From NCBI RefSeq assembly GCF_058153355.1, contig NZ_CM177019.1: a stretch of 64,000 nucleotides of DNA; one strand, given 5' to 3'. Under the pieces are notes generated by a model. The model had not been told where the DNA came from. It ran no database searches and saw nothing but the letters and a program-made list of their open reading frames with translations. Below are positions 59,408 through 61,789 of this stretch, piece after piece; the first letter of the stretch is position 1; each line of letters opens with the position of its first letter. A program made the translations under genes and the position numbers.

Positions 59408-59483
59408 TCATGAAAGATTATCTACAAACTGTGACGGGCCCCGTCGCCCGTGAAGATATGGGGCTAACACTTTGGATTTGCCC

Positions 59484-60389
59484 CTATATTTCCAGACACC
59501 TGTTATCACTTAACCCATTACTGGCCTGCTGCCGCAGATATTCCCGTGGCGAGCGATAACCCAGTGCACTATGCGGATGCCATTCGTTATAATGCTCGAA
59601 CGCCTCTGCAAGGTTCTTTGCTGCCGTTAACCCGTCTGGTTTAGGCATGATACTGATGTAGTCACGCTTTATCGTTTTCACGAAGCTCTCTGCTATGCCG
59701 TTACTCTCCGGACTCCGCACCGCCGTGTTCTTCGGTTCAAGCCCCAACATCCGGGCAAACTGCCGTGTTTCATTAGCCCGGTAGCATGAACCATTATCCG
59801 TCAGCCACTCTACTGGAGACGCCGGAAGCTCGTTGCCGAAGCGGCGTTCCACCGCTCCCAGCATTACGTCCTGTACTGTTTCACTGTCGAAGCCGCCCGT
59901 AGTGACTGCCCAGTGCAGTGCCTCACGGTCACAGCAGTCCAGCGCGAACGTGACTCGCAGTTTTTCTCCGTTATCACAGCGGAACTCGAACCCGTCAGAG
60001 CACCATCGTTGATTGCTTTCTTTCACGGCCACTTTGCCAGTATGTGCCCGTTTCGATGGCGGTACAGCGGTTTTTCGCTCAAGCAACAGCGCATTCTGGC
60101 GCATGATCCGGTAAACACGTTTGGCATTGATCGCAGGCATACCATCAAGTTCGGCCTGTCTGCGAAGCAGCGCCCATACCCGACGATAACCATACGTGGG
60201 CAGCTCTCCGATAACATGGTGTATACGGAGAAGCACATCCGTATCATCTGAGTGACGGCTGCGGCGACCATCTTTCCAGTCATCGGTTCGTCTGAGAATT
60301 ACGTGCAACTGCGCACGCGACACCCGGAGACAACGGCTGACTAAGCTTACTCCCCATCCCCGGGCAATAAGGGCGCGTGCGCTATCCAC
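59484..60389 (-). CDS. insD: IS2 transposase OrfB (DDE integrase domain)
   Basis: 301-aa ORF matching IS2 InsD; overlaps insC in the -1 frame as expected for programmed frameshifting. Confidence 0.9.
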
Positions 60390-60712
60390 TTTTTTGCATG
60401 CCCGTATTCAACGGCTTCTTTAAGGAGTTCATTTTCCATCGTTTTTTTGCCGAGCAGGCGCTGGAGTTCTTTAATCTGCTTCATGGCAGCAGCAAGTTCA
60501 GAGGCAGGAACGACCTGCTCTCCTGCGGCCACAGCAGTAAGACTTCCCTCCTGGTATTGCTTGCGCCAGAGAAATAACTGGCTGGCTGCCACACCGTGTT
60601 GCCGGGCAACAAGGGAGACCGTCATTCCCGGTTCAAAACTCTGCTGAACAATAGCGATCTTTTCCTGTGTAGTACGCCGTCTGCGTTTCTCCGGTCCTAA
60701 GACATCAATCAT
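60347..60712 (-). CDS. insC: IS2 OrfA (HTH DNA-binding protein)
   Basis: 121-aa from [26 protein letters not shown]... Confidence 0.9.
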
Positions 60713-61789
60713 CTGCTCTCCAATGACTAGTCTAAAAACTAGTATTAAGACTATCACTTATTTAAGTGATATTGGTTGTCTGGAGATTCAGGGGGCCAGT
60801 CTACACTTCCTCATGAACATCTGTTCAACGATCTTTCCTCTGTTGTGGATGCTCCTTGCTATCCTTTTTCACAACGGCTTGTTGATAAAAAAGTCACGGC
60901 AGAAATCCAGTGGGCATTAAAACACGATCCTTATTGCTGCGCTGATAATATGGACCGCAAACCTATTGAAGATGTGATCTTCGAAATTAATAACTTTATC
61001 TCGCTCGGTGGTCGCACCATTATTGATGCCACAGGGTCTGAGTCTATCGGACGAGATGCGCAGGCATTACGAGAAGTCGCATTAAAAACAGGTCTGAATA
61101 TTGTTGCTTCCTCCGGTCCCTACCTGGAAAAATTTGAAAACCAGAGAATTCATAAAACGGTTGATGAACTGGCGACAACGATCGATAAAGAATTGAATCA
61201 AGGGATTGGCGATACGGATATTCGTGCCGGAATGATCGGTGAAATAGGTGTTTCACCGACATTTACCGAAGCCGAGCATAACAGCTTGCGGGCTGCCTCG
61301 CTGGCACAGATTAACAATCCTCATGTGGCGATGAATATTCACATGCCGGGCTGGCTTCGTCGCGGTGATGAAGTACTCGACATTGTGTTAGGTGAAATGG
61401 GCGTCTCGCCAAATAAAGTCTCTCTCGCACACTCGGATCCGTCAGGAAAAGACGTGGCGTATCAGCGGAAAATGCTTGATAAAGGTGTCTGGCTGGAATT
61501 CGACATGATTGGCCTAGACATTACCTTCCCGAAAGAGGGAATAGCGCCAGGGGTGCAGGAGACTGCCGATGCCGTCGCTCATCTCATTGAGTTGGGATAC
61601 GCCGATCAGCTTGTTCTCAGCCACGATGTCTTCCTTAAACAAATGTGGGCTAAAAATGGCGGTAATGGCTGGGGATTTGTTCCAGATGTTTTTCTGGCCT
61701 ATCTGGCGGAGCGCGGCGTCGATAAAACGATCCTCAAAAAACTCTGTATCGATAATCCCGGACGATTATTGACCGCATAAAACCATTAT

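Follow-up and report, generated by a model that had tools for sequence, protein, structure and literature searches.

Analysis of the window, which is the whole stretch of 64,000 nucleotides of DNA, showed that a complete IS2 element interrupts a PTE-family hydrolase gene. The explanation that we hold with high confidence is that IS2 inactivated this gene, the last of four in a horizontally acquired cluster, by transposing into it, and that the event is young. The coordinates of the features are listed in Table 1.

Table 1. Positions of the interrupted gene, the IS2 element and the upstream cluster genes in the window.
Feature	Position	Strand	Remarks
rikA-like PfkB kinase, intact	56399..57613	+	404 aa; DeoR-type N-terminus
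Glutamine amidotransferase, intact	57627..58385	+	252 aa
DMT (YdcZ-type) transporter pseudogene	58442..59407	+	TGG-to-TAG, codon 203 (59048-59050)
PTE-family gene, 5' fragment	59410..59472	+	codons 1-21, MKDYLQTVTGPVAREDMGLTL; from sequence reading, ORF list and script
Target-site duplication CACTT, left copy	59468..59472	n/a	present once in empty sites
Complete IS2	59473..60803	-	1331 bp; transposase genes antisense to the interrupted gene
IS2 right inverted repeat (IRR)	59473..59513	n/a	41 bp; TGGATTTGCCCC...
IS2 orfB	59484..60389	-	301 aa; HTH_21, rve and rve_3 domains (rve integrase core)
IS2 orfA (InsA/TnpA)	60347..60712	-	121 aa; HTH_Tnp_1 domain
A6G slippery window	60389..60395	-	cTTTTTTg on the + strand; predicted programmed -1 frameshift giving the OrfAB transposase
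IS2 left inverted repeat (IRL)	60762..60803	n/a	42 bp; TAGACTGGCCCC... on the minus strand
Chimeric 334-aa ORF	60776..61780	+	begins at a TTG within the IS2 IRL, which supplies 28 nt (9 whole codons)
Target-site duplication CACTT, right copy	60804..60808	n/a	script check
PTE-family gene, 3' part	60809..61780	+	codons 22-344 and stop; all predicted metal ligands lie here

Direct reading and a script check placed the start of IS2 at TGGATTTGCCCC... and its finish at ...GGCCAGTCTA; this is the only IS2 copy within the 64-kb window. The target-site duplication seems to be 6 bp (ACACTT) because IS2 itself ends in A. Only 5 bp are duplicated: the flanks of the window mapped to an empty-site locus (L001) with an overlap of exactly 5 bp. 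The chance match of one given 5-mer pair is 1/1024, and the gapless match to real empty sites is the more decisive evidence. When 59410-59472 was joined in silico to 60809-61780, that is, when the element and one copy of the repeat were removed, the result was a frame of 1035 nt (344 codons and a stop codon), free of frameshifts and internal stops. The restored protein reads MKDYLQTVTGPVAREDMGLTL|PHEHLFNDL... at the junction. IS2 was inserted right after codon 21, two codons ahead of the HxH metal-binding motif (PHEHL, residues 22-26). The frame of the 5' fragment continues into IS2 and forms a 49-aa ORF (59410-59559).

The orfA and orfB frames of the element are both open and overlap at the A6G run. 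The A6G motif is the frameshift window of IS2, and the inverted repeats of IS2 are 41 bp (IRR) and 42 bp (IRL) (PMC3299598). The Pfam rve domain was detected in orfB at 8.5e-20. The fused transposase scored 702.8 against the NCBIfam model 'IS2 transposase TnpB' (cutoff 597), 236.4 against 'IS2 repressor TnpA' (cutoff 229) and 282.8 against the IS3 family model (cutoff 160). The element is intact and belongs to a common IS2 variant other than that of K-12; its copies elsewhere in the island, in other strains, were 99.8-99.9% identical to the copy of the window. Four other insertions of the same element in the island had perfect 5-bp repeats of their own (AACAC, GGCAT, TTAGT, and AAAGG). An earlier note on this DNA, made from the sequence alone, had described a complete IS2 of exactly 1331 bp, flanked on both sides by CACTT and inserted 21 codons into a PTE-family gene whose frame is restored by excision of the element and one repeat. 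The length, ends, gene layout and protein family of the element all identify it as IS2, both repeats were perfect, and the insertion point and the restored frame were as it had proposed.

The restored protein matched the Pfam PTE family (PF02126) with E = 2e-46 and 159.2 bits, at a gathering cutoff of 22.4, and the alignment covered residues 14-342 of 344 and profile positions 3-297 of 298. The metal ligands of PTE-family proteins are an HxH in strand 1, a bridging Glu/Lys in strand 4, His residues in strands 5 and 6, and an Asp in strand 8. The predicted ligands of the restored protein are H23, H25, E166, H199, H229, and D294, which we assign as metal ligands by the general pattern of the amidohydrolase superfamily.

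The in-silico rejoined junction with 400 bp per side (800 bp) was used as the empty-site query against 5426 complete E. coli genomes. The best matches covered 100% of the query in one ungapped piece with 99.8% identity. At least 80% of the query was covered in one place in about 2016 of the 5426 genomes, and the gene at the empty site is annotated there as an intact 'phosphotriesterase-related protein'. An uninterrupted gene was also found in the SRR26060866 assembly, where it encodes exactly the restored 344-aa protein; the 6.4-kb contig of this assembly (L011) aligned with the excised window without gaps and with 4 mismatches in 6375 nt. The restored protein and the intact L001 allele are one residue apart (N132 vs S132). 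Position 61140 is A (Asn132) in the window and G (Ser132) in L001 and in both genomes that share the IS2 insertion; the Asn132 allele also occurs in the uninterrupted gene of SRR26060866. These results bear on three further points of the earlier note. The empty site that it had suggested looking for in related strains is present in these genomes. Its statement that IS2 is the only lesion in the PTE gene holds, in view of the same protein in SRR26060866 and the single different residue in L001. Its view that the insertion looks recent is fair, given the perfect repeats, the intact transposase frames and the few flanking mismatches with the empty-site strain.

Only two complete genomes contained the occupied site together with both flanks as a single piece: E. 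coli O121 201805972 (NZ_CP119441.1; France) and VL7S7 (NZ_CM177009.1; Thailand). In both of them the site, the orientation and the CACTT repeats are identical to those of the window, and their IS2 is 100% identical to the copy of the window. Their flanks showed 2 SNPs in 5676 nt against the window, one of which is the N132/S132 difference. Unlike the window, these two sister genomes have a frameshift in rikA and an IS1 in each of wcaE and the amidotransferase gene. The IS2 insertion is one event that was inherited by a small lineage. The strain of the window is an earlier or less decayed branch of that lineage; it lacks both IS1 insertions and the rikA frameshift of the sister genomes, and the IS2 junction is presumably older than the further IS1 insertions of O121 201805972 and VL7S7. 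The lineage is IS-rich, and the closest relative has an O-antigen cluster of the O124/O164 family. The IS2 junction (…GGGGCTAACACTT|TGGATTTGCC…) can serve as a marker of this small IS-rich lineage, which includes O121 201805972 and VL7S7. The insertion is already represented in public genome annotation and is an ordinary event.

The PTE gene is the last gene of a cluster that forms an AT-rich island (39-46% GC) near cobU/cobS in E. coli. The stop codon in the DMT transporter gene was found in six of the seven loci compared, and TGG was present only in strain AMSCJX02. The operon was decaying before IS2 arrived, because this stop codon is common to six of the seven loci. Downstream of the PTE gene lie a C-terminal fragment of a gamma-glutamyltransferase (ggt) gene (61820-62112, minus strand) and then an ISL3-family transposase pseudogene (62192-63811, minus strand); both were found at this place in all E. 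coli loci examined. In Salmonella, ggt (STM3551) presumably adjoins STM3547-3550, an arrangement that would fit an island imported along with part of the gene that once adjoined it.

Published work describes the transposition of IS2 as a copy-out, paste-in pathway via a figure-of-eight and a minicircle, and the minicircle junction forms a strong promoter, Pjunc (PMC3299598). By analogy with that work, an active-looking IS2 copy would have formed a figure-of-eight by asymmetric strand transfer, and the figure-of-eight would have been resolved into a minicircle. Both ends would then have attacked the target in a staggered manner and left a 5-bp duplication. Insertion after codon 21 would have duplicated CACTT, and codons 1-21, the ribosome-binding site and the operon transcription would have been cut off from codons 22-344 by 1.3 kb of antisense IS2. 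The copy in the window is presumably competent for transposition. We infer that the host gene was simply inactivated, with its expression lost and the downstream fragment silent, and that the loss was probably neutral. The event has little biological weight: in textbook fashion, IS2 knocked out a dispensable accessory gene whose cluster was already in decay.

The chimeric ORF requires a separate interpretation. As the earlier note had stated, it owes its apparent start to IS-derived sequence. PGAP/RefSeq annotates the same ORF in both sister genomes (5777-6781 in both L002 and L007) as an intact 'phosphotriesterase-related protein', WP_000012229.1, and calls the 63-nt 5' stub a pseudogene in both. 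In the rival explanation the ORF is a real expressed gene: transcription across IS2, by read-through or fortuitous, together with the TTG in the IRL, would give a catalytically complete, active PTE-like enzyme with a new IS-encoded N-terminus of 10 residues. If this were true, WP_000012229.1 would represent a genuine product of IS-gene fusion instead of a pseudogene fragment. In its favour, no stop interrupts the frame between the TTG and the end of the 3' part, the insertion lies ahead of all six predicted metal ligands, the duplication keeps T-L before PHEH, and PGAP calls the product intact. However, a crude consensus scan of 59300-61000 found no sigma-70-like promoter, no outward promoter or terminator was found near the IS2 ends, and the weak TTG at 60776 is not preceded by a Shine-Dalgarno sequence. 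An exact match to the chimeric 334-aa protein with an M start was not found in the protein collection. The chimera loses 21 N-terminal residues, 17 of which are identical in Proteus mirabilis Pmi1525, which suggests that they are structurally important. Upstream, the transporter gene of the pathway has already become a pseudogene, and the kinase and the amidotransferase are broken too in the sister genomes, which suggests that the pathway is not maintained. Expression of an active fusion enzyme is therefore very unlikely indeed, and, judging from the sequence, we regard the chimeric ORF as a gene-calling by-product. For clean annotation, the 334-aa ORF merits a pseudogene flag, since it is a truncated gene that takes its start from IS sequence. 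The RefSeq label of an intact protein on an IS2-initiated chimera is an annotation error, and such an error can spread through protein databases.

Two further alternatives concern the insertion itself. A specific IS2 hot spot in the island, or selection for inactivation (pathoadaptive loss), could have taken the place of a neutral hit, and the island is AT-rich and carries many independent IS2 insertions in both orientations in other E. coli. In the orientation of the window, 104 genomes had an IS2 within about 1.65 kb of the site, at no fewer than five distinct sites, each with a perfect 5-bp repeat. A query with the IS2 reverse-complemented found 42 further genomes with the opposite orientation and at least 12 distinct spans, so that both orientations together gave 146 genomes and roughly at least 17 distinct sites. 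An apparent bias of IS2 in the island to a single orientation was rejected as an artefact, as the search joins same-strand pieces only and the mirror query found the 42 genomes. An equally large control region in the neighbouring dispensable DNA (a zinc-ribbon/Gp2 prophage remnant) gave 68 genomes in one orientation, at many sites; this density is comparable, and a specific enrichment on the island was rejected. Moreover, the gene is uninterrupted in about 2016 of 2680 island-bearing genomes. A hot spot or selection is thus very unlikely, and the data fit the view that IS2 accumulates generally in DNA that is dispensable and horizontally acquired; the island is not special in this respect. The misplacement of a repeat-collapsed IS2 copy by the assembler is conceivable in principle since IS2 is multicopy, with 26 places in each sister genome, and such repeats can be misplaced. 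Both junctions, however, are precise, with a regular 5-bp duplication, and the complete genomes from France and Thailand, each assembled independently, have identical junctions, so an assembly artefact is extremely improbable. The preferred reading remains a single, young IS2 insertion that inactivated the PTE-family gene.

Some other observations on IS2 were made in the searched genomes. Two more IS2 insertions were found inside the same PTE gene in other E. coli, at codons ~60 and ~107. Inverted IS2 pairs within a few kb were frequent in E. coli chromosomes and plasmids and have a composite-transposon-like look; in the examples seen, they flanked autotransporter genes or a plasmid segment of about 1.3 kb.

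The wider window was compared with the near-identical VL7S7. The region ~700-36200 of the window was collinear with VL7S7, with 98.0% identity over the first ~3.4 kb and 99.7% over the remaining ~32 kb. By this collinearity it contains the wca colanic-acid cluster, galF, an O-antigen cluster of the O124/O164 family, gnd, ugd, and wzzB, and the his operon, sbcB, dacD, sbmC, and yeeA lie downstream of wzzB. In VL7S7, wcaE is interrupted by an IS1, which is absent from the window. To judge from the O-antigen type and the IS load, the background may be EIEC/Shigella-like. An ISSso6 element lies at ~54900-56294, with its transposase ORF at 55033-56208 on the minus strand. Relative to VL7S7, the whole island from rikA to position 64000 is inverted and directly abuts ISSso6, with a breakpoint at ~56286-56294; in VL7S7, ISSso6 and the island are separated by about 17 kb of a CP4-44-like prophage remnant. 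In both O121 201805972 and VL7S7 the island has the opposite orientation to that of the window relative to yeeA/ISSso6. This arrangement implies a putative inversion of roughly 25 kb, whose other end would lie beyond the window, and the inversion may be IS-mediated.

Comparison with known systems was made for the element, the interrupted gene and the cluster. The reference for the element was the K-12 copy IS2A (NC_000913.3, 381260-382590; IS3 family, IS2 group). The element of the window is like IS2A in its length of 1331 bp with zero indels, in its orfA/orfB and A6G layout and in its 5-bp target duplication, and it is unlike IS2A in 58 substitutions (95.6% nucleotide identity). The IRL matched that of IS2A at 42 of 42 positions and the IRR at 40 of 41, the sole substitution being at IS position 1305. 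InsA differs from its K-12 counterpart at 1 of 121 residues, while the orfB product is identical to K-12 InsD1 at 290 of 301 residues (11 different; 96.3%). A divergence of 4.4% from K-12 IS2 is near the border between an isoform and a distinct element in IS nomenclature. PGAP labels this variant 'IS3 family transposase' and the K-12-like copies 'IS3-like element IS2 family transposase'.

The restored protein shares the Pfam PTE domain and the amidohydrolase-type ligand pattern with E. coli Php (YhfV), the Pseudomonas/Agrobacterium organophosphate hydrolase (OPH) and phospho-furanose lactonase. Identity with each of these three was rejected from the scores against the NCBIfam equivalog models: 108.7 for Php (cutoff 486), 79.5 for OPH (cutoff 500) and 41.3 for phospho-furanose lactonase (cutoff 630). 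These scores are far under the cutoffs, and the restored protein therefore belongs to a distinct PTE subfamily. It aligned end to end with P. mirabilis Pmi1525 (PDB 3rhg, 4qsf), over 344 of 344 residues with E = 4.6e-174, and the ligand motifs PHEHL, MIGEIG, NIHMPG, SLAHSD, and LSHDVF were all identical in Pmi1525. In a passage of one paper, Pmi1525 is cited for metal-ion-stimulated esterase activity, and the reference list of that paper includes Xiang et al. 2015, whose title names a methylphosphonate esterase (PMC5341072).

The order of the E. coli cluster (kinase, amidotransferase, DMT transporter, and PTE) is like that of the Salmonella rikA (STM3547)-STM3550 cluster. The latter was described in 2026 in Salmonella and is conserved in Escherichia, Citrobacter, Proteus, and Budvicia (PMC13432705). 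By sequence and gene order, the restored protein corresponds in E. coli to STM3550 of Salmonella and Pmi1525 of Proteus.
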